29,775 bases of DNA from a virus (Duplodnaviria > Caudoviricetes). Shown one piece after another: positions 6,575 to 26,261 of the stretch. The stretch is taken from positions 1-29,775 of the IMG/VR virus record IMGVR_UViG_3300022867_000044; one strand, 5' to 3'. Within the stretch, counting starts at the first letter, position 1; each line of letters opens with the position of its first letter. Under the pieces are notes generated by a model. That model saw only the letters and a program-made list of their open reading frames with translations. It searched no databases and was not told where the DNA came from. The translations under genes were made by a program, and so were the position numbers.

Positions 6575-9007
6575 TCAATAGTACTCCGGCACAACATCTT
6601 CTACCTGCTCAGGGTCGTCTTCATCCGATAACAACGCAATAAAGTTGCCTTGCCGAAAGCGCATTAAAGCCATTGTGGTCGAGTCTACCATGTCATCGTG
6701 ATCCCCGTTAGGAAAAGCAGCACACTCCTCCACCAACTCCTCCGCCCATGCCGTGTCGGGTGCCCACACCAACCCACTCTCCAAAATAGGTGACACCGCG
6801 TTTGCCCGCGAGACCTTGTCCGTGCCCGTGCGCCGCCCACCAGGCGTGTAAGTCGTCACAGGAATGCCGAGCCTGCGCATTTCCTGCTGCAAGGACACAC
6901 CCGTTGCCTTGGCCTCAATCAACACATTGTCTGGATTCCAGTACTTGTACTCGTCTAACGCCACCCGCTTTAACTCAGGAAAGTCCCACCGACCACGCTT
7001 CACGCCCAACAAGATAATGTTCGCGCCCTCGTCCATTGACGGGAAGAACACACCCCACGTCGTGATGACAGAAAAGTCCGCCGTCTCCTTTTTTGAGTAC
7101 GCCGTGTCATACGATTGAATAATATAATCAACCGCGGGCGGTGAGTCTTGGTCCCAGCGCTGCCACCACTCCCGCTTTAAAATCGCCCCCTCATCATTGG
7201 TCGGCTGCTGTTGGTACATCGCGTTCCACTTCTGCACGGACAACGATGCGCGGACCGCTTCTAATTCCTCAAGCTTCCAGTACTCCGGCCACAAGGGCTT
7301 GCCTGACGGCATGATGGCAGGAAACTCAATGACCTCCCACTTGTCCGCATTGTGGCTCGTCTGCGCCTTAATCAGGCGTGCTGTAAGATCTCTCGTGCCC
7401 CATCTTGTCATTATTATGAGAATAGCCCCGCCAGGTTGCAAGCGAGTTCGAGGTCCACCCTGATACCAGTCCCAAGCGTTCTCAAGCGCTAACTCACTCA
7501 TCGCATCTTGCTCGGAGTTGTGTGTTACCACGTAGCCCCGACCGGCTAAGAATAAACCGTCCGGCCTGTCTACCGTAATACACTGGACTGACCCTGTCGT
7601 TCCAGTCGCCTCAACGGTGATACTGCGTGAGCGCTTGTCTTGTGGGGTGCGTGTGTACATACGCTTTCTAGGCATGCGAGCGCAATCCTCTAACCGAAAC
7701 ATCACTCTGTGTTGTGTTTGAGCGCTTGCCCACCGACCACGGTTGTCCTCATACGAACGCATTTGGCACTTGACGCCTAAGGAATGCAGCAGTTCCACTG
7801 CCGACCTAACTAGCCCAGCGTTAGCACTATAAAACCCCGCTTGACCTGTTTTCGTCACAGATCCGTCCGTGTCTACCAAGCCCTGTAACAAGGACATACG
7901 TTGGCTTTCAGATGCTAGCAAGTACTGCTCAGGCACATGCTTGTTGTTCAAAACCCCTAACGCTTTTAGCTGCTGGTGTAGCCCGTATACGGTGAAGGTG
8001 TACCCACACTTCGTAAATCCCCCCACCTTATATCCCGCTTTCTCAAACTGCTCAATCATGTACGGCTGGTCATCCGGATGAGCTGTAATGCGGCCGGACG
8101 AAGACGTGCCATCCCCAAGCCACGCGCCAAGGACCCAAGGGTCGACAGGTAGACACGCTTCTGCGTATTGCACGGGTTGATGCCTGGGCAATATCGGACG
8201 GTTTTTTTGTGGCCAACTTGCCAAGTACTCCGCTGTTTGATTGACCACCCGCGCTCTAGCTAAATTCGTGTCCGAATTAATCCCCCACAAATGTTTGGCA
8301 TCGCACAAGATTTCTTCATTGTCGTCCGTTATAACGGAGTAAAGCTCCCTGTCATGCCAAACTGCGGACTTTGATACCACACGTATGGGGTTGCCATCAG
8401 GACCAAACACTTGGTCTCCAACTTTCAAATCCTGTATCTCCACAAACCCGTTTGGCGTAGGGATTGGCGTCGTGATCTCCAAAGCATGCGGATCATCAAT
8501 TACCAACAAATCCGCACCGCGGCCCGTGACAGCACCGCCCACACCGACAGCAAAGTAACTGCCACCCTTGTTCGTGTCCCAGCGACCAGCTGCCTTGGAA
8601 TCAGACTTTAACTTCACCTCGGGAAACAACTCCTCATACTTGTCCGTGTCCATCAAGTCACGTACCTTCCTGCCAAACTTCACCGCTAACTCAGCCGTGT
8701 GTGTCGCCTCAATGATCTGGAGCCGCGGATCACGGCCCATGAGGTACGACGGCAGCAGATATGACGATAGCTCGGATTTTGAGTGTCTCGGTGGAAGATT
8801 CAAAATCAACCGTTTCAACGTCCCATTGGCAATGCGATCAAACGCATCTGCAATCTTCTTGTGGTGCGCACCCAGTATCGCCTCAGGCCACATGTACTTA
8901 ACGTAGCTTAAGAACGAATCACGGGCCGCGTCTCGGGCTTCAATCTGCGAGAGCCTCAGCTCAAGCTTTAACCGCTCACTTTCAACGTCTTCCGGCTCAC
9001 GGACCAT
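6575..9007 (-). CDS. terL: Terminase large subunit, intein-containing (810 aa precursor, ~487 aa spliced)
   Basis: Walker A LPPRHSKS, GGAVTGRGADLLVIDDPH (Walker B), IMTRW coupling motif, RNase H-like nuclease with SYDTA and FPNGDHDDMVD. Confidence 0.95.
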   Translation of the reverse strand: MVREPEDVESERLKLELRLSQIEARDAARDSFLSYVKYMWPEAILGAHHKKIADAFDRIANGTLKRLILNLPPRHSKSELSSYLLPSYLMGRDPRLQIIEATHTAELAVKFGRKVRDLMDTDKYEELFPEVKLKSDSKAAGRWDTNKGGSYFAVGVGGAVTGRGADLLVIDDPHALEITTPIPTPNGFVEIQDLKVGDQVFGPDGNPIRVVSKSAVWHDRELYSVITDDNEEILCDAKHLWGINSDTNLARARVVNQTAEYLASWPQKNRPILPRHQPVQYAEACLPVDPWVLGAWLGDGTSSSGRITAHPDDQPYMIEQFEKAGYKVGGFTKCGYTFTVYGLHQQLKALGVLNNKHVPEQYLLASESQRMSLLQGLVDTDGSVTKTGQAGFYSANAGLVRSAVELLHSLGVKCQMRSYEDNRGRWASAQTQHRVMFRLEDCARMPRKRMYTRTPQDKRSRSITVEATGTTGSVQCITVDRPDGLFLAGRGYVVTHNSEQDAMSELALENAWDWYQGGPRTRLQPGGAILIIMTRWGTRDLTARLIKAQTSHNADKWEVIEFPAIMPSGKPLWPEYWKLEELEAVRASLSVQKWNAMYQQQPTNDEGAILKREWWQRWDQDSPPAVDYIIQSYDTAYSKKETADFSVITTWGVFFPSMDEGANIILLGVKRGRWDFPELKRVALDEYKYWNPDNVLIEAKATGVSLQQEMRRLGIPVTTYTPGGRRTGTDKVSRANAVSPILESGLVWAPDTAWAEELVEECAAFPNGDHDDMVDSTTMALMRFRQGNFIALLSDEDDPEQVEDVVPEYY
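7517..8485 (-). mobile_element. Class 3 intein with LAGLIDADG homing endonuclease (323 aa)
   Basis: Inserted at DDPH|ALEITTPIPTPNG...GYVVTHN|SEQD. Ala1 start, block B CDAKHLW, block F VQCITV, block G THN/S. Endonuclease motifs LGAWLGDG and LQGLVDTDG. Confidence 0.92.
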
Positions 9008-9439: not shown

Positions 9440-9449
9440 CTTGGTCTAT

Positions 9450-9547
9450 GGATCGCGGCTCACGGCTCACGGCTCACGGCTCACGGCTCACGGCTCACGG
9501 CTCACGGCTCACGGCTCACGGCTCACGGATCACGGCTCACGGATCGC
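9450..9547. repeat. 7-bp tandem array GGCTCAC (14 units, 10 perfect consecutive)
   Basis: GGATCGC, (GGCTCAC)x10 at 9457-9526, GGATCAC, GGCTCAC, GGATCGC. Confidence 0.95.
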
Positions 9548-9551
9548 GAAT

Positions 9552-9567
9552 TGTTTCACGTGGAACA
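9552..9567. promoter_or_regulatory. parS: parS site, copy 2
   Basis: Identical TGTTTCACGTGGAACA. Both copies are preceded by AT, giving an 18-bp direct repeat. Confidence 0.85.
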
Positions 9568-15191: not shown

Positions 15192-15668
15192 ATGCCAAAA
15201 AAGCCCCCTTACAAGATGCCCAAGCCTGTTTTCAGGTACCCTGTTGCACCACCCACTTCCCAGACAGCTGTAACCACCACCCAGACCGTCACACAGCCCG
15301 CTGGTGAGCCGCAAAGCCTGTCCTTGGATGGTAGGAGTCCTTTGCCTCCAAAACCGCTTAAAAAGCCCCCTTCTATGAACCCCCCACCAAACCCTTCTGC
15401 ACCCCCGCCCGAAGCTCCCAAGGCTCCCAAAAGATCCCCCGATCCGTACGAGTCGTTTACGCTTGATTTGGTGGTTTTGCACGTCCGGTTGCCCTTGTCC
15501 CTGAAGCGTGAAGTCCGGTTCGCGGCCCGTGCCTCTGGCGTCACGCTCTCGGCTTACGTGCGTGCTTGTCTGGTCAATGCCCTGCCTCCTGCCCCTGAGA
15601 AGCGCGTAGGGGCTCTAGGACACGTCTATCGGCGTCTGGTCGTGTGGTTTGCTGGGGTGAGATTCTAA
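15192..15668 (+). CDS. Pro-rich protein with C-terminal ribbon-helix-helix (Arc/CopG/HicB-like) domain
   Basis: VLHVRLPLSLKREVRFAARASGVTLSAYVRACL fits the RHH pattern. GGAG RBS; TAATG coupling to the MTase. Confidence 0.7.
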   Translation: MPKKPPYKMPKPVFRYPVAPPTSQTAVTTTQTVTQPAGEPQSLSLDGRSPLPPKPLKKPPSMNPPPNPSAPPPEAPKAPKRSPDPYESFTLDLVVLHVRLPLSLKREVRFAARASGVTLSAYVRACLVNALPPAPEKRVGALGHVYRRLVVWFAGVRF

Positions 15669-17026
15669 TGGCTCCCGAGACCCCCCAGACTCTACAACCC
15701 AGCCCTCTGACATACCTTTCCGTCTGTTCTGGGATAGAAGCCGCTACCGTGGCGTGGCATGACTTGGGATGGCAGCCGGTTGGTTTCTCGGAGATAGAGC
15801 CTTTCCCCTCTGCTGTCTTGGCGCACCATTATCCCAACGTCCCGAACTTTGGGGACATGTCGGCGTTACCCGCTCGTATCTTGTCGGGTGAAGTTGTTGC
15901 ACCGGACATTTTGTGTGGTGGCACGCCTTGCCAGGCATTCAGTGTGGCGGGACTGCGACAGTCTTTGTCCGATGACCGTGGGAATTTATCCTTAACTTTT
16001 TGTGAGATCGCAAATGCAATTGACACTATTAGAGCAAGACGATGCGAGTCTGCCGGCATTGTCTTCTGGGAAAACGTCCCTGGGGTGCTTAACACCGCAG
16101 ACAACGCCTTTGGCTGTTTTCTTGGGGCAATTGCCGGAGAAGATGGTGCATTGGAGCCGCCAAGGGGAAGGTGGAAGAACGCTGGTTGTGTGTTTGGACC
16201 ACAAAGAGCAGTCGCGTGGCGCGTGCTTGACGCCCAATATTTCGGAGTGGCCCAACGCCGCCGACGTGTGTTCGTTATCGCAAGTGCTCGAGACGGGTTC
16301 AATCCCCTCGAGGTACTTTTTGAGTTCGACGGCGTGCGCAGGGATCTTGCGCCGAGCCGAGAAGCGGGGGAAAAAGTTGCCCCCTGCGTTACAAACGGCC
16401 CTCCTTTCAGTCGCACAGGCAACGAGCGCGTAGAGTGCGAGGCGATAGTGCCGGTTGGCAACGTACAAGGCGGGGACGTGACGACCTTGTCTTCACGCGA
16501 GTACAAGGGCTTGAGTTGTGGCAGGGACGGCATGACATCTGCTGCTGTCATACACACGGCACCCATAGCCCTGCAAGATGTCTCAGGTCGGGACAAGGCA
16601 CAAAATGGTAAGGGCTGGAGTGACACGGCAGGGCCACAAGGTGCGGGCATCAACGAGGAAATCTGCTTCACGCAAAACGCCACGGACGTGCATGGTGTTG
16701 GCACTTACCCAGTCGGTTGTTTCAAGGGCGGAGCGGGTAGCGCAGCGGGTGGTATTGGATACAGCGAGACTCTTAGCCCCACGATTACAGCTGCTGACAG
16801 TGGCTCCAATCGCACGCCGGTCATACATCAGCAAATGCAAGTCAGACGCTTGACCGTGACAGAGTGTGAGAGATTGCAGGGTTTTCCTGACGGCTACACA
16901 GCCATCCCGTGGCGCAAGAAGGCTGCCGAAGACTGTCCGGATGGTCCGCGGTACAAGGCCCTTGGTAATAGCTGGGCGGTGCCCGTGGTCAAGTGGCTTG
17001 GTTCGCGGATCGAGACTCAGTGTTAA
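15668..17026 (+). CDS. C5-cytosine DNA methyltransferase
   Basis: Motifs I (SVCSGIEA), IV (GGTPCQAFS), VI (ENVPG), VIII (QRRRRVF), IX (RRLTVTECERLQGFP) and X (YKALGNSWAVPV). Start taken at the TAATG overlap. Confidence 0.93.
   Translation: MAPETPQTLQPSPLTYLSVCSGIEAATVAWHDLGWQPVGFSEIEPFPSAVLAHHYPNVPNFGDMSALPARILSGEVVAPDILCGGTPCQAFSVAGLRQSLSDDRGNLSLTFCEIANAIDTIRARRCESAGIVFWENVPGVLNTADNAFGCFLGAIAGEDGALEPPRGRWKNAGCVFGPQRAVAWRVLDAQYFGVAQRRRRVFVIASARDGFNPLEVLFEFDGVRRDLAPSREAGEKVAPCVTNGPPFSRTGNERVECEAIVPVGNVQGGDVTTLSSREYKGLSCGRDGMTSAAVIHTAPIALQDVSGRDKAQNGKGWSDTAGPQGAGINEEICFTQNATDVHGVGTYPVGCFKGGAGSAAGGIGYSETLSPTITAADSGSNRTPVIHQQMQVRRLTVTECERLQGFPDGYTAIPWRKKAAEDCPDGPRYKALGNSWAVPVVKWLGSRIETQC
16014..16433 (+). 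CDS. Nested out-of-frame ORF, putative MTase beta-type polypeptide
   Basis: +1 frame inside the MTase. CSLSQVLET..YFLSSTACAGILRRAEKRGKKLP resembles the M.EcoHK31I beta polypeptide as recalled. Start uncertain (GTG 16002 or ATG 16014). Confidence 0.7.
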   Translation: MQLTLLEQDDASLPALSSGKTSLGCLTPQTTPLAVFLGQLPEKMVHWSRQGEGGRTLVVCLDHKEQSRGACLTPNISEWPNAADVCSLSQVLETGSIPSRYFLSSTACAGILRRAEKRGKKLPPALQTALLSVAQATSA

Positions 17027-21334: not shown

Positions 21335-23203
21335 TTATACCGCTTCACCCCACGAAGGTCCAATTTCTACATCAACGCGTGAGGGTACTTCCAAATCTGC
21401 GGCTTGGCACATGAGTTGTGCGGCCTCCTCGGCTTCCTCGCGGTTGTTGACACTGAGGGCAAGTTCATCATGCACTTGAAGCAGGATATTAAAGCCCGCT
21501 TTGTGTAGGCGGAGCATGGCCGCTTTGGTCTGGTCGGCGGCCGAGCCTTGGATCAGGCGGTTCAAGCCCTTATAAGTCATGGCGCGCTTGACCCGTGGGC
21601 CGTACTTCACGACGGCCTGTTCGTAGGGCAGTGCCTTGTTGATGCCCCACGCCACGGGCTCGAAGAGCGGGAAGCGGCACTTCCTGCCCAGTAGTGTGCG
21701 AATGCAGCCACCCGATGCCGGATGCTCAATGCGACGCATGACCGCGTCAATCGTGCCACGCAGGAACGGGACCTTGGTGTGGAAGTCTCGAATAATTTCT
21801 CCAGCTTCATCAACAGGTAACTCAAGCTGGGCGGCAATTTTATTCTTTCCGGCGCCATAAGTTATGGACAATCCCAAAACTTTTGCTTGTTTCCGGTCGA
21901 TGCCCGCCATGTCGGCCACCATCTGGTGGAAGTCCGTGTCGGGGTCATCCTTGTAGCTTTGCACCACCTTGTCAACGCCAGGTAGCCCGAGCAGGGAAGC
22001 GTAATGCACAAGAATACGGGGCTCTTGTGAACTGAAGTCATTAGACGCCCATAATTGACCCTCTTCGGGCAAGAACAGGCTACGGATGGCCGGACCGATG
22101 ACTGGGTGCCGTGCTGGCACCTGCTGGAGATTCGGAGAAGCCATAGAGAGGCGTCCTGTGACCGTGCCACCATCATCGGAGCGTAGTTGGTTCACATGGG
22201 GGTGGATGCGTCCGTCAGCAGCAGAGAAGTCCAGATACGGTTGCAAGAAGGTGCCATAGGTTTTGTTGATCTCGCGCGCTTCCACAATAAGCTTTGCCAA
22301 TGGGTGGTAGCAGGTCTCGAGAAACGTTTTGGTAAAGCTTGGCAGGTTAGTCTTGGAGCGCGGGTACTGAATGCCTTGCTTGTCAAAGGCGATAGCCACG
22401 CTAGCCGCGGCCCAGATGTCCACGCCCACGCCTACGCTCTTCTTGATCTCGGCCATGATCTTCTTCTCACGGTCCTGCATCTGGTCAATGAGCCGTGATG
22501 CTTTATCCCTATCGAATTGGATACCCTTATAGGTTAAGTCTATCAGTACAGGCAGCAGTTCTGTTTCAAGATCGAAGATGGATTCCACTTCTTCGCGGCG
22601 CAACAGTGTCTGGAAATGGTGCCAGAGCTTGAGCGTCAGTGCCGCGTCCTGCTCGGCGTAAGCGCCCACGTACATGGCGGGTAGCTTCCACATGTCCTTC
22701 TTGGGGTTTACCCCAAAGTCTGCGGCGGCTTCGCGTAACCCCTGCTCTGATTTCGTTTGTTTGAGGTATTCGAACCCCAACGCATTCAGTGAGTAAGAGA
22801 ACCGATTCTCGTCCAAGACAGCTGCGGCCAGCATGGTATCAATTACCCTACCCTTGATTTCGAATCCCTGAGCCTTGAGCCACCCACAATCGTAGGCGGC
22901 ATTGTGCATGATTTTGTCGCATGGAAGCAACAGTACCTGCTTGATGAAGTTCTCGACGATGCGCTTGTCAAGGTTGCCGCCCCCTTGGTGGGCGACGGGG
23001 TAGTAACCCTGCCATCCGTCTACTGCCACCGCGTAGCCGATGATGTAGCCGTCCTTACGTGGCCAACCTGGACCGTACTTCTCTAGATTAGGGTCACAGG
23101 TTTCCAAGTCGATGGCGATTTCTTTCGCCTCAGAAAGATCGGGAAAACCCTGAGGGGGCATCCACTCAGAAGGTGTAGGGAAAAGCGACATTGTTTTGAT
23201 CAC
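21335..23203 (-). CDS. polA: DNA polymerase family A with 3'-5' exonuclease
   Basis: Exo motifs DLET, HNAAYD, YAEQDA. Polymerase motifs TGRLS..PNLQQ, A (DFSSQEPR), B (RKQAKVLGLSITYG), C (QVHDE). Confidence 0.95.
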   Translation of the reverse strand: MIKTMSLFPTPSEWMPPQGFPDLSEAKEIAIDLETCDPNLEKYGPGWPRKDGYIIGYAVAVDGWQGYYPVAHQGGGNLDKRIVENFIKQVLLLPCDKIMHNAAYDCGWLKAQGFEIKGRVIDTMLAAAVLDENRFSYSLNALGFEYLKQTKSEQGLREAAADFGVNPKKDMWKLPAMYVGAYAEQDAALTLKLWHHFQTLLRREEVESIFDLETELLPVLIDLTYKGIQFDRDKASRLIDQMQDREKKIMAEIKKSVGVGVDIWAAASVAIAFDKQGIQYPRSKTNLPSFTKTFLETCYHPLAKLIVEAREINKTYGTFLQPYLDFSAADGRIHPHVNQLRSDDGGTVTGRLSMASPNLQQVPARHPVIGPAIRSLFLPEEGQLWASNDFSSQEPRILVHYASLLGLPGVDKVVQSYKDDPDTDFHQMVADMAGIDRKQAKVLGLSITYGAGKNKIAAQLELPVDEAGEIIRDFHTKVPFLRGTIDAVMRRIEHPASGGCIRTLLGRKCRFPLFEPVAWGINKALPYEQAVVKYGPRVKRAMTYKGLNRLIQGSAADQTKAAMLRLHKAGFNILLQVHDELALSVNNREEAEEAAQLMCQAADLEVPSRVDVEIGPSWGEAV

Positions 23204-24732
23204 AGCATGAATCCTCTTCGTACGTTCTTAGGGTAAACGATATGTAAAGCCTGCCTGGTTCGCGTCATGGCCACGTAGTGCAACCGGTTTAGGGCATCAG
23301 GGTCGGTGTCGTACAATTTGGCAAACCGTCCTGACAGGTCCGTGATCAGTAAAACGTTGTCCGCTTCCCCGCCTTTAGCACCGTGGATCGTGGACAGTTT
23401 GATTTGAGCCTCGCTACGCAAAGCAGTCTTACGTCGCAGTAGAGCGATAATGTACTCGCGTTTGTCCTCCCCAATCTTGGTCAGTGCTTCGTGCCAGATC
23501 TTATTGGTCAAAAGACCGTGGGCCGTGGTCAGTGAGCCGTGGCTATAGAGCGCCTCTGGATCAGCCTTTGATAGCGTCTTGTGTCCCCGTGCGATATAAT
23601 CAGAACCGAGGTACTTGTAGATCTGTTTGGCCACAGTGAGAGGGATTTCTTTACCCTTTCGCAACGCTTCCCATCCCAGCACGGCGGATAGGATGCTCTC
23701 AGAAATGCTTTTTTGTCCATTGCGCTCGAACAAAAGCCCTTGCGACTTGATCCAGTCGTACAACCCGTTTAGCGTGTAGTTGGCAGCGGCCAAGATAAGC
23801 CACTGGCCTTTAGAGATGTCCACGTCTGTGGCATCATTGTAAAACAAAACATGGCCATCGTAGTCGCGGGGCTCCCAGACTTTGGGCTGTCGTTTGCGAA
23901 TGCGGCGCACGACTTGGTCGGCGAGCTTGTGGACTCGAGCGGGCACGCGGTAGGAGTGGTCAAGGACTTTGACTTCGCCAGGCAAGGCTAAAAAGCTTTG
24001 CACATCCGCCCCCGCCCAGTTGTAAATGGCTTGATCGTCGTCACCGGCAATGTATATACGTTGGCTATACATGATCAATTGCTGCACCAAATTCCACTGT
24101 AGGCGCGAGAGGTCTTGTGCTTCGTCAATGATCAGCACCTCGAGCCGTGGTAAGCGCTTCGGATCCTCGATCAAACGCTCAAGTAAATCCGTGAAGTCCA
24201 TCAGACCGTTGCTTTGTTTGTACTGTCGATAGCACCGTTCAACGTACTCTAAGTGATACCATTCGATTTCCATGTTGCTTTGGTTGTAGTACGTGCGCAG
24301 GTCTTGCCCGCGGATACGGGCGATGTTTATTTCGTTTAGCACTGGATGGTCGGTGTGGATGATGTACTCTTCTTCGCCCTTCTCAATGGCAAGTTCCAAA
24401 CCGGCTGACTTGGCAAAGTCGAGATACTGCTGCGGGGACATCAAGTCCTTATTACCGACGCCCAAGCACTTGTACGCCAAGCTGTGTAGCGTCCTAAACC
24501 ACGGGAAGTCCAAGTCTGCGTTGAGCTCAGTGAACTTCACTTGCGCGCGCTCCCGAGCCTCGGTGGCAGCTTTACGTGTGAACGAAAAGTAACCCACCTT
24601 GCTCGAGGGCACGCCTTGCGCAAGTTCCTTCTCCATGATGTTCAGAAGATACGTCGTTTTGCCAGTGCCTGGCTACGGAGGGCCGAAGACTTTAGTCGTC
24701 CTCGGCCCGATTTCCTTTTCAAGTGTGTTCAT
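23200..24732 (-). CDS. UvrD/Rep-like SF1 helicase with in-frame TAG at codon 20 (candidate recoding)
   Basis: ATG 24732 (TGATG overlap with primase) is in frame with the 23200..24636 ORF and reads ...KVFGPP*PGTGKTT. Other motifs intact: FTRKAA, TLHS, DEAQD, GDDDQAIY, SYR, STIHGAKGGE, YVAMTR. Confidence 0.85.
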
Positions 24733-26261
24733 CAGAACGGAGACTCCTCTCTTGACGTCGGTGTCTCAAACGGCGCATCCTGCTTGGCAAATTTCGGCAT
24801 ACGCCAAACACGGGTCGTGCGGCTTTTGAGGTACATGCTGACAGGATCTCCACCGACCTCACGCAAGCGCTGTGCAATCTTAGGCGCAGTCAAAGCCATG
24901 AAGTTATTGCGACGCAAGAACGTCTCAAGGTCCTTCATCCGAAAGTACACCATGCCCTCTTGGTCATCCGTCCAAGGTCTGCCCATGAGCATCTCTTCAC
25001 GGTCAAGGGCTTGCTGCATGTGCGTGGTAAATTCTTCTACCAAGTCCATGAACCGACCCGTGACGCTTGTATCCTCGGAGGCTTCAACAATCTGTTCAAG
25101 CTCCACCATCTCCCGCAAGAGTGCGTTAAGCATGGCTTCCCAGTCTTGCTTGCGCAAGGTCGGGGGCAGCATGTTAATACGCTCAACACACGTCTTTTGA
25201 AACGAGGGCTGGTTAAAGAGCGAGTCTGTTTCTAGTTCTAAGCGCTTGCCATTGATATCCAAGAACCAAAGAGGCGGCTCACTGTTGTACTTAGACAACG
25301 AACTGATCTGTGGGGCATCAGGCGCGTCTGCACCAATACCGAATTTGCGTGTACGACAAAGACCACTGTTGCAAAACGAATTCAGTGGCGCGTCCTTGCA
25401 CTTGTACTTGTACTCTTTTTTGCCCAACTGCTTTGACACAAGTTGAAGTTCTGCCACACCAAGTGGTGGGTCAAAATACTTCATGTTGTATTCCATCAGC
25501 TTGTCTTCCCACGCGGTGGGTGCGGCACGCTTTAAGTAAATGCCGACGTTAAACAAACCATTGTTGCGTGTGCCTTCAGGAAAGCCTTGTGCACACAAAG
25601 CCTGTAGGCATGGTGGACCTTCCTTTATCGCTTGCTCAGCTTGCTTAGGCTCTTCAGGAAAGTTCAACGGTGCTTGCTGTACGTACATATCGTATAGCGC
25701 GTAGAACTGCTCCAAAGTGGATGCTGTGCCGTCATCATTGATGCAATAACGCAAGCCCTGTTCCCCGCCAAAGTAGGGCAGGTTCAAGAAGTTGCCGGTG
25801 TCGCCTCGCTCAACCAAGATCTCGGATTGCTTTGGAAATATCTCTCGCCCCGATTCACCCAACTGGGCGGCGGCAGCCTTCAAGTAACGTTGCATGTCTG
25901 CGGCGGGCACAGGCTCTGCTGTAAACAAGAAAACATGGGCACCACCCGACTTGCTACGGCACACGACCATAGGCAACTTTAACGAGCGGACACGGGTAAT
26001 CAGGCCTTTAAGGTCGAGCGGATATTGATCAATGTCAATGCAACCCCAAATGCAACTATTGTCTGCACGAATTGGGATAATGCCTAAACTCGGTTCGGCG
26101 CCCTCAAGGTGCTTGACCCAGAGTTCGTCAATGGGGGGCTTGCGCACAACAACGGCTTTGCCGGCTTGCTTGCCATTGCCCTTAGCCCCTTCTATCTTGT
26201 ATGTTCCGTAAGCGATATCTAAGCCAGAAAAAATCGCTTTAAACCGTGTGATGTCGGTCAT
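24732..26261 (-). CDS. Archaeo-eukaryotic-type primase (AEP catalytic domain plus Cys-containing PriL/PriCT-like region)
   Basis: WGCIDID, RSKSGGAHVF, EIFPKQ, GNFLNLPY, PPCL..GTRNNGLF and further Cys residues. Confidence 0.8.
   Translation of the reverse strand: MTDITRFKAIFSGLDIAYGTYKIEGAKGNGKQAGKAVVVRKPPIDELWVKHLEGAEPSLGIIPIRADNSCIWGCIDIDQYPLDLKGLITRVRSLKLPMVVCRSKSGGAHVFLFTAEPVPAADMQRYLKAAAAQLGESGREIFPKQSEILVERGDTGNFLNLPYFGGEQGLRYCINDDGTASTLEQFYALYDMYVQQAPLNFPEEPKQAEQAIKEGPPCLQALCAQGFPEGTRNNGLFNVGIYLKRAAPTAWEDKLMEYNMKYFDPPLGVAELQLVSKQLGKKEYKYKCKDAPLNSFCNSGLCRTRKFGIGADAPDAPQISSLSKYNSEPPLWFLDINGKRLELETDSLFNQPSFQKTCVERINMLPPTLRKQDWEAMLNALLREMVELEQIVEASEDTSVTGRFMDLVEEFTTHMQQALDREEMLMGRPWTDDQEGMVYFRMKDLETFLRRNNFMALTAPKIAQRLREVGGDPVSMYLKSRTTRVWRMPKFAKQDAPFETPTSREESPF

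Follow-up and report, generated by a model that had tools for sequence, protein, structure and literature searches.

The question raised by this locus is how a viral helicase gene is read when its P-loop is interrupted by an in-frame stop codon. The gene lies on the minus strand of the window (the whole stretch of viral DNA analysed, 29,775 nucleotides), and its P-loop reads GPP-TAG-CCA-GTGKT. Comparison with related genes suggests that this 6-base insert is likely bypassed, and likely the leftover of a homing-endonuclease cassette whose target it would break. Taken separately, bypassing of the insert by ribosomes is very probable and, with rather less confidence, nuclease immunity is probably the reason that the insert exists. 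The site is conserved, and most likely marks a programmed hop of the ribosome, carried by a homing element.

The window is a virus contig about 50% complete, and the public sequencing runs that carry it are salt-lake metagenomes, none of those listed being RNA. Its helicase is a UvrD-helicase (PF00580 and PF13361, Pfam) placed between an AEP-type primase (24732..26261, Pfam) and a family A DNA polymerase (21335..23203), all on the minus strand, with Pam3 gp33/gp34-like genes nearby. The primase TGA (24734-24732) overlaps the helicase ATG (24732-24730) as TGATG, and the polymerase overlaps the helicase stop. Read from 24732, the helicase frame gives MNTLEKEIGPRTTKVFGPP, then the stop, then PGTGKTT, and is open from there to a TGA at 23202-23200. 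The first open reading frame (24676..24732) comprises 19 codons that cover the first beta strand and the start of Walker A and end in Gly-Pro-Pro, the second proline codon, CCG (24676..24678), being the putative take-off codon. The in-frame TAG (24673..24675) and the putative landing codon CCA (24670..24672) are the two halves of the insert, and GGC (24669-24667) is the first codon after it. The second open reading frame (23200..24669) encodes the rest of a UvrD/PcrA-like superfamily 1 helicase, from GTGKT to its stop. It matches PcrA (E 2e-20), and motifs I-VI are present, motif I only with the insert skipped. Gene callers start the second frame at ATG 24636 and obtain a 478-aa product from which, as the preliminary description had pointed out, the P-loop is lost.

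That description had also placed the stop and proline codons inside Walker A, which the frame bears out, and had named an assembly error as a way in which they might be spurious. Contigs of six public runs span the insert (two comparisons of four runs each, two shared), and no indel or joint is listed there; the first comparison lists no substitution in 24578-25013, and the second gave 40 of its 96 differences. Genome-wide amber recoding can be set aside, since TAG closes 10 of the 42 translated open reading frames of the window, as an ordinary stop, and relatives have TAA or TGA at the same spot. No tRNA genes were found in the window. Elsewhere in it, the large terminase (6575-9007, minus strand) has an apparent intein after Walker B (a LAGLIDADG-like Pfam match) and an intact Walker A; a tandem 21-nt-like repeat (9448-9560, plus strand) gives GSRLTAH repeats in a short open reading frame at the switch from the structural block to an AT-rich block; and a cytosine methyltransferase-like frame, recognized by eye (15644-17026, plus strand), lies on the strand opposite to its neighbours.

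The interruption recurs. Viral, metagenome and genome collections were scanned by pattern; together with two homology scans this yielded 463 loci, the metagenome scan taking in 120 of about 140 matches and the second homology scan sampling 3 of 64 parts. Once the loci had been dereplicated and screened against a helicase profile (E below 1e-3, with the pattern residues excluded), the set comprised at least 94 distinct interrupted variants, among them that of the window, and 117 intact helicases; 73 chance pattern matches were discarded. Proline-stop-proline-like codons were thus found to recur among homologous helicases, as had been foreseen if the hop were real, in genes with 25% to 67% identity to that of the window. 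The cassette is nonetheless a minority state: the two homology scans, both blind to the P-loop, had it at 4 of 75 and at 3 of 78 scorable loci. The genome-collection scan gave 40 matches, mostly chance, its few helicase ones all in metagenome bins. No cultured model was found, the closest phage record, DSL-LC04 (66%; the one examined of 92 records), being intact, and blastn with the cassette returned short chance matches only. The preliminary description knew of no such case in a phage helicase; the literature search, in which most subscription papers fell outside the scope, likewise found no report of helicase P-loop bypass. Three loci (L109, L160 and L234) carry the cassette together with an apparent intein extension of the helicase, and related helicases extended by apparent inteins (PF14890 listed) occur in P0041, P0067, P0085 and P0087. 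Between primase and helicase there is often a conserved frame of about 85 aa whose function is not clear (L023, L185, L384, L394 and others); its label in DSL-LC04, 'sigma-G factor', looks doubtful.

Just upstream of the stop, an 11-bp hairpin is predicted (24680..24708, minus strand; 5' arm 24708-24698, loop 24697-24691, 3' arm 24690-24680) with one G-U pair and a 7-nt loop, its 3' arm covering the Val-Phe-Gly-Pro codons. It stands in both the MFE and centroid folds just as first described, and none of 200 shuffles was as stable (z = -3.37). Homologues share the hairpin, and it covaries among them: one at or below -15 kcal/mol ending at the Gly-Pro-Pro codons is predicted in 89 of 91 interrupted genes versus 3 of 116 intact ones (among intact genes of at least 48% GC, 8 of 39 reach -12). 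Among 40 distinct arm pairs, between 33 and 40 are paired at any one of nine stem positions, and compensatory swaps occur, the third base of the glycine codon being C:G in 28, G:C in 7, A:U in 2, U:A in 1 and unpaired in 2. The stem register was chosen per sequence, which favours pairing, but with the same procedure 79 of 91 interrupted genes score at least 20, whereas none of 115 intact ones does. One cassette helicase that lacks the predicted hairpin (L109) directly follows a Mom-family gene (PF25680; upstream frame 1859-2461).

A Shine-Dalgarno-like motif at the foot of the hairpin had been missed in the preliminary description. In 68 of 91 interrupted genes a GGAG precedes the stem by 2-5 nt, even though the loop varies between 7 and 37 nt in length, and in 54 of these 68 no in-frame start follows the motif at 4-14 nt. 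Most relatives have AAGGAG at the foot; the window has a weaker AAGGA (24713..24717, minus strand), 4 nt before it, whose role is putative. An extension of the stem in which GGAG pairs with the proline codons is ruled out, as the motif is kept whatever the third base of the first proline codon (C 40/47, G 12/20, T 11/18, A 5/6). A further stem, GCCAG/CUGGC over the landing codon, does fold in the window as had been claimed, but -4 kcal/mol is reached in only 13 of 94 variants and the stem is probably incidental. The peptides of the first open reading frame in relatives run to 9-34 codons and have in common only their last few residues, (K/R)(V/I)FGPP-like, so that no conserved nascent-peptide signal was found among them. 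DNA inversion between the hairpin arms was also considered and rejected by reasoning, as it would leave the stop in place.

As to purpose, many relatives have an HNH endonuclease gene between primase and helicase, where the window has none. Two pairs of near-identical genomes (L006/L007, 99%; L393/L394, 97%) each include one member with both nuclease and cassette; the extra gene, of about 500 nt and inserted before the helicase, encodes an HNH_3 endonuclease (six of seven references match Pfam, the seventh being probably in the wrong frame). Where the flank is 600 nt or longer, a gene of this family directly precedes 29 of the 67 interrupted helicases and none of the 107 intact ones; among relatives of at least 50% identity the counts are 20 of 36 and 0 of 20, respectively. 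Counted in independent pairs, the association is 6.3 to 0 (median p 0.03, range 0.004-0.125). Four more interrupted genes (9 with short flanks), and no intact one, follow a gene of a second, Cys-rich HNH-like family, and low-scoring LAGLIDADG-like or NUMOD4-HNH genes occur at isolated loci. One weak, unrelated HNH lies upstream of an intact helicase (L438), other nuclease genes precede some intact helicases (L432, L438, L461), and database matches to the HNH protein were generic only. At the level of the family, then, the nuclease is linked to the modified allele and the cognate alleles lack both.

The cassette also appears to move. Downstream of the insert, the alleles differ at 8 positions in the first 45 nt and none in the next 45 (L006/L007), or at 5 and none (L393/L394), a clustering that would follow if the element carried a copy of the gene's 5' end along with it. 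L093 and L087 differ by the loss of about 490 nt with the nuclease in it while the cassette stayed, which is the state of the window, where no HNH match was found in the half or so that the contig represents. On a FastTree tree of 120 helicases the cassette state changes 15 times, 11 of them forced by strong branches; deep all-cassette clades in this tree reflect sampling, and gain is not separable from loss. A tie between mismatched landing codons and the nuclease was tried and dropped: the raw Fisher p of 0.004 (27/34 vs 17/38) becomes 1 in independent pairs (2.2 to 1.0).

These observations bear on the strongest of the rival explanations, in which the same hop persists because it regulates or limits the amount of helicase and not for nuclease immunity, much as the preliminary description had it when it suggested that bypass sets or regulates that level. 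In its favour, cassette, hairpin and selection persist in the 34 of 67 loci that have neither profiled nuclease family, a count that also speaks against immunity, as does the lack of a nuclease in the window; take-off depends on the speed of termination, which could be sensed; and a regulatory role has been proposed for bypassing in phage Hau3, in the portions of that paper available (PMC10732093). Against it, the cassette state has changed at least 11 times on the tree, and likely 15; near-identical genomes live with intact genes; and the cassette is a minority that arrives with a nuclease. No evidence for a regulatory function was found, and we consider it unlikely. Given that the cassette travels with homing-type endonucleases, an insert that confers immunity to the nuclease and is neutralized in translation is the better-supported purpose.

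If ribosomes do hop, the codons on either side of the gap should be those that a single tRNA can use, and to a large extent they are. Take-off is from CCG in 60 of 94 cassette variants, as compared with 19 of 117 intact genes. The landing codon, in scans that left it free, is YYN in 85 of 87 variants versus 14 of 73 chance matches: CUG 24, CUA 17, CCG 15, CCA 14, CUU 8, UCN 4, CCU 2 and UUG 1, or 49 CUN and 31 CCN by class, the two exceptions being GCG and CAC. CUC and CCC are absent among the 87, and UUR occurs once, although it makes up 884 of 3711 leucine codons (24%) in the same genes; selection at the landing site is therefore on the codon and not on the amino acid. G35-G36 of tRNA-Pro could pair with YY through Watson-Crick or G-U pairs, and a 2004 title by Herr et al. 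reportedly concerns minimal pairing. The matched landing codon of the original proposal consequently holds for the window (CCG to CCA), where landing and take-off codons can pair with the same tRNA, but not as a rule for the family, which lands on CUN more often than on CCN. An exact match is thus not required; CUN and UCN codons are pairable only loosely, and most landing codons need a second-position G-U pair.

This looseness is a point in favour of a second alternative, in which the insert is removed or changed in RNA by micro-splicing or editing, or in which only the stop is skipped and one extra residue is added: CUN codons match tRNA-Pro poorly. Splice-site or ribozyme features are lacking, however, an Rfam search of the window gave no matches, and the sole constants of the cassette are codon-framed. 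Likewise, stop-skipping does not account for a landing position selected for its codon, and no insert of any length, one residue included, follows GPP in the top 120 of 2889 protein matches to the TAG=Q translation (118 have the exact GPPGxGK, 1 has a GAP form and 1 is truncated). We regard removal in RNA or skipping of the stop alone as very unlikely.

Plain readthrough of the stop by a near-cognate tRNA, with the enzyme working on a two-residue longer loop (GPP-x-P/L-GTGKT), is confronted by the same protein matches, and we regard it as very unlikely. It would be helped by the C that follows the stop in 81 of 87 variants, a weak termination context, by the in-frame length of 90 of 94 gaps, and by one variant in which the stop is replaced by TGG (L243:1801-1829, with full hairpin and Shine-Dalgarno motif), which may reflect a sequencing error, a sense-codon hop or a tolerated Trp-Pro insert. 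Among 89 classified variants the position is otherwise TAG (39), TAA (26) or TGA (23). Since the other patterns demanded TRR, a scan of IMG/VR was also run with any codon allowed: 43 of its 48 matches are helicases, all 43 with a stop and none with a sense codon, and the five sense-codon matches are non-helicase frames, judging from their translations. Further, the four remaining gaps change frame, which excludes plain readthrough for them. These are a 7-nt gap (CCG TAA T CCT GGT, on three contigs in variable-gap scans), an 8-nt gap (CCA TGA TG CCG GGC) and a 10-nt gap (CCG TAA GAGT CCG GGT), each with a proline codon just before GGN, and a 13-nt gap whose landing codon, ACA, fits tRNA-Pro poorly. 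The inner part of the last (L346:2004-2039) reads Gly-Lys-Thr in the downstream frame. The idea that the Shine-Dalgarno motif serves as a ruler of gap length is unsupported, as these four variants do not have a shorter Shine-Dalgarno distance. The 5' hairpin also speaks against readthrough; we know of no case in which such a hairpin serves as a readthrough signal.

Whatever the mechanism, the gene is under selection. Fifteen cassette pairs and fifteen intact pairs were compared downstream of the gap. One pair in each set is saturated; the other 14 give a dN/dS of 0.05-0.22 with the cassette and 0.02-0.20 without it, so that the relaxed selection expected of a null allele is not seen. Motifs Ia-VI, described at the outset as intact, survive, depending on the motif, in 51-58 of the 58 full-length cassette genes; two cassette frames close early (L209 and L215). 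Within the window population 36 of the 48 differences listed are synonymous, over about 348 synonymous and 1110 non-synonymous sites, a bias to which recombination could add, because intact alleles 98.5-99.2% identical to the window helicase, with a different N-terminus, exist (P0124, P0127, P0128, P0133, P0134). The least credible reading of all, a dead gene or a P-loop-less protein restarted at ATG 24636 or at a CUG landing codon (24 of 87, CUG being a rare start codon), with a host or co-infecting helicase used instead, can point to the gene callers' 478-aa product, to the same ATG start in 7 of the 14 cluster members listed besides the representative, and to intact alleles in the same cluster, but it is contradicted by the dN/dS and motifs just given, by the conservation of GTGKT after the stop itself, by a hairpin that covaries over distances of 25% identity, and by landing codons (CCA, CCG and CUA, the window having CCA) that are not starts.

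The minimal 6-nt programmed bypass first proposed for this site is thus strongly supported by comparison: codon choice, the covarying hairpin, out-of-frame gaps and purifying selection all argue for it. Mechanistically, the ribosome would stall when Pro-Pro peptidyl-tRNA sits on CCG and the stop occupies its A site; proline before a stop slows termination, according to the available part of one study (PMC3082878). The peptidyl-tRNA-Pro anticodon would release CCG, and the hairpin, its 3' arm in the E site and exit channel, might zip up behind the ribosome and pull the mRNA through, as proposed for the 5' stem-loop of gene 60 in the passages available of a 2016 review (PMC5009743). The ribosome may be kept in place, while the hairpin is looped out, by the Shine-Dalgarno-like motif at the hairpin foot. 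The tRNA-Pro would then re-pair six nucleotides on, at CCA in the window or at CUN and UCN through G-U pairs in relatives, and decoding would resume at GGC to yield ..VFGPPGTGKT. On the DNA side, the nuclease would cut the intact P-loop sequence and the cassette would bring its own version of the gene's 5' end when it homes in, after which lineages such as that of the window may lose the nuclease and keep the immune allele; the T4 bypass insert blocks nicking by MobA, as the accessible part of a preprint reports (bioRxiv 2022.08.31.505936). Some observations fit this scheme poorly, namely the landing codons GCG, CAC and, in the 13-nt gap, ACA, and the second-position G-U pairs common here, whereas T4-family cassettes differ at the wobble base only, going by the same part of that preprint.

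A broader proposal, to which we assign even chances, is that the cassette is a portable 'translational micro-intron' in which Shine-Dalgarno motif and hairpin act as a motor for an efficient hop over a stop without a nascent-peptide signal, landing mostly through second-position G-U pairs and lent to several endonuclease families as self-immunity in P-loop genes. Were it correct, short programmed bypassing would be common and overlooked in wild phages, and this would be the first natural in-frame stop-hop family. The implications are considerable even on the narrower reading. Established cases of programmed bypassing are very few, and the T4 cassette is called unique in the portions of the bypass literature available; the helicase cassette would be an independent, widespread and minimal version, with a signal of about 50 nt in all. 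Its natural series of gaps, stops and landing codons offers a test both of the model in which a hairpin behind the ribosome drives forward movement and of how loose P-site re-pairing may be. It would support the view that bypassing evolves, besides introns and inteins, as a third means by which homing nucleases shield the allele that carries them, and it would explain P-loop-less helicase calls in databases.

The features by which bypassing is recognized are found here: a non-coding gap in a conserved protein, a stop after the take-off codon, a pairable landing codon and conserved mRNA stimulators. The nearest parallel in organization, with no sequence homology implied, is the 50-nt cassette of T4 gene 60 and MobA (bioRxiv 10.1101/2022.08.31.505936; 10.1101/2024.12.09.627546), which, in the passages available, likewise has a stop after the take-off codon, landing by the same tRNA, a 5' stem-loop and Shine-Dalgarno contact, adjoins an HNH nuclease with an element-borne replacement copy of host sequence, and outlives loss of that nuclease while other nuclease families take over. 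The differences from that family, on the same passages, are as follows. Its host gene is a topoisomerase, the large subunit with NTE/CTE defining the family, whereas here it is the P-loop of a UvrD-like helicase, a gene not split into two subunits as T4 gene 60 is; its gaps are 20-50 nt against 6-13 nt, and its tRNAs are Gly or Asp in place of Pro. The helicase cassette has neither the T4-type A-site take-off stem with tetraloop nor a conserved nascent-peptide signal. The T4 Shine-Dalgarno lies 6 nt before the landing codon (a mini version 5-7 nt before it being typical), while that of the helicase cassette, where stop and landing codon make up the whole gap, is 5' of the hairpin; and second-position mismatched landing, common here, is unlike T4. 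The helicase cassette is outside the T4 gene 60/MobA family, as gene, tRNA, gap and signals all differ.

Closest in layout is the terminase bypass of Streptomyces phage Hau3 (10 nt, or 7 nt in a prophage; PMC10732093), which the passages covered describe as triggered by a rare UUA codon, proposed as regulatory and present in only 3 of 100 terminase genes, with no nuclease link in those passages. Stop-hops in E. coli are synthetic, the helicase cassette having by comparison conserved stimulatory signals, and in the sections available the 2016 review (PMC5009743) knew of no natural in-frame stop-hopping. Finally, collaborative or intronless homing shares with the helicase cassette a free-standing nuclease that adjoins a conserved gene and an insert that blocks its target, as far as the available text of that work goes (PMC2988022); there the insert is spliced out of RNA or protein, whereas here it is likely removed by the ribosome.
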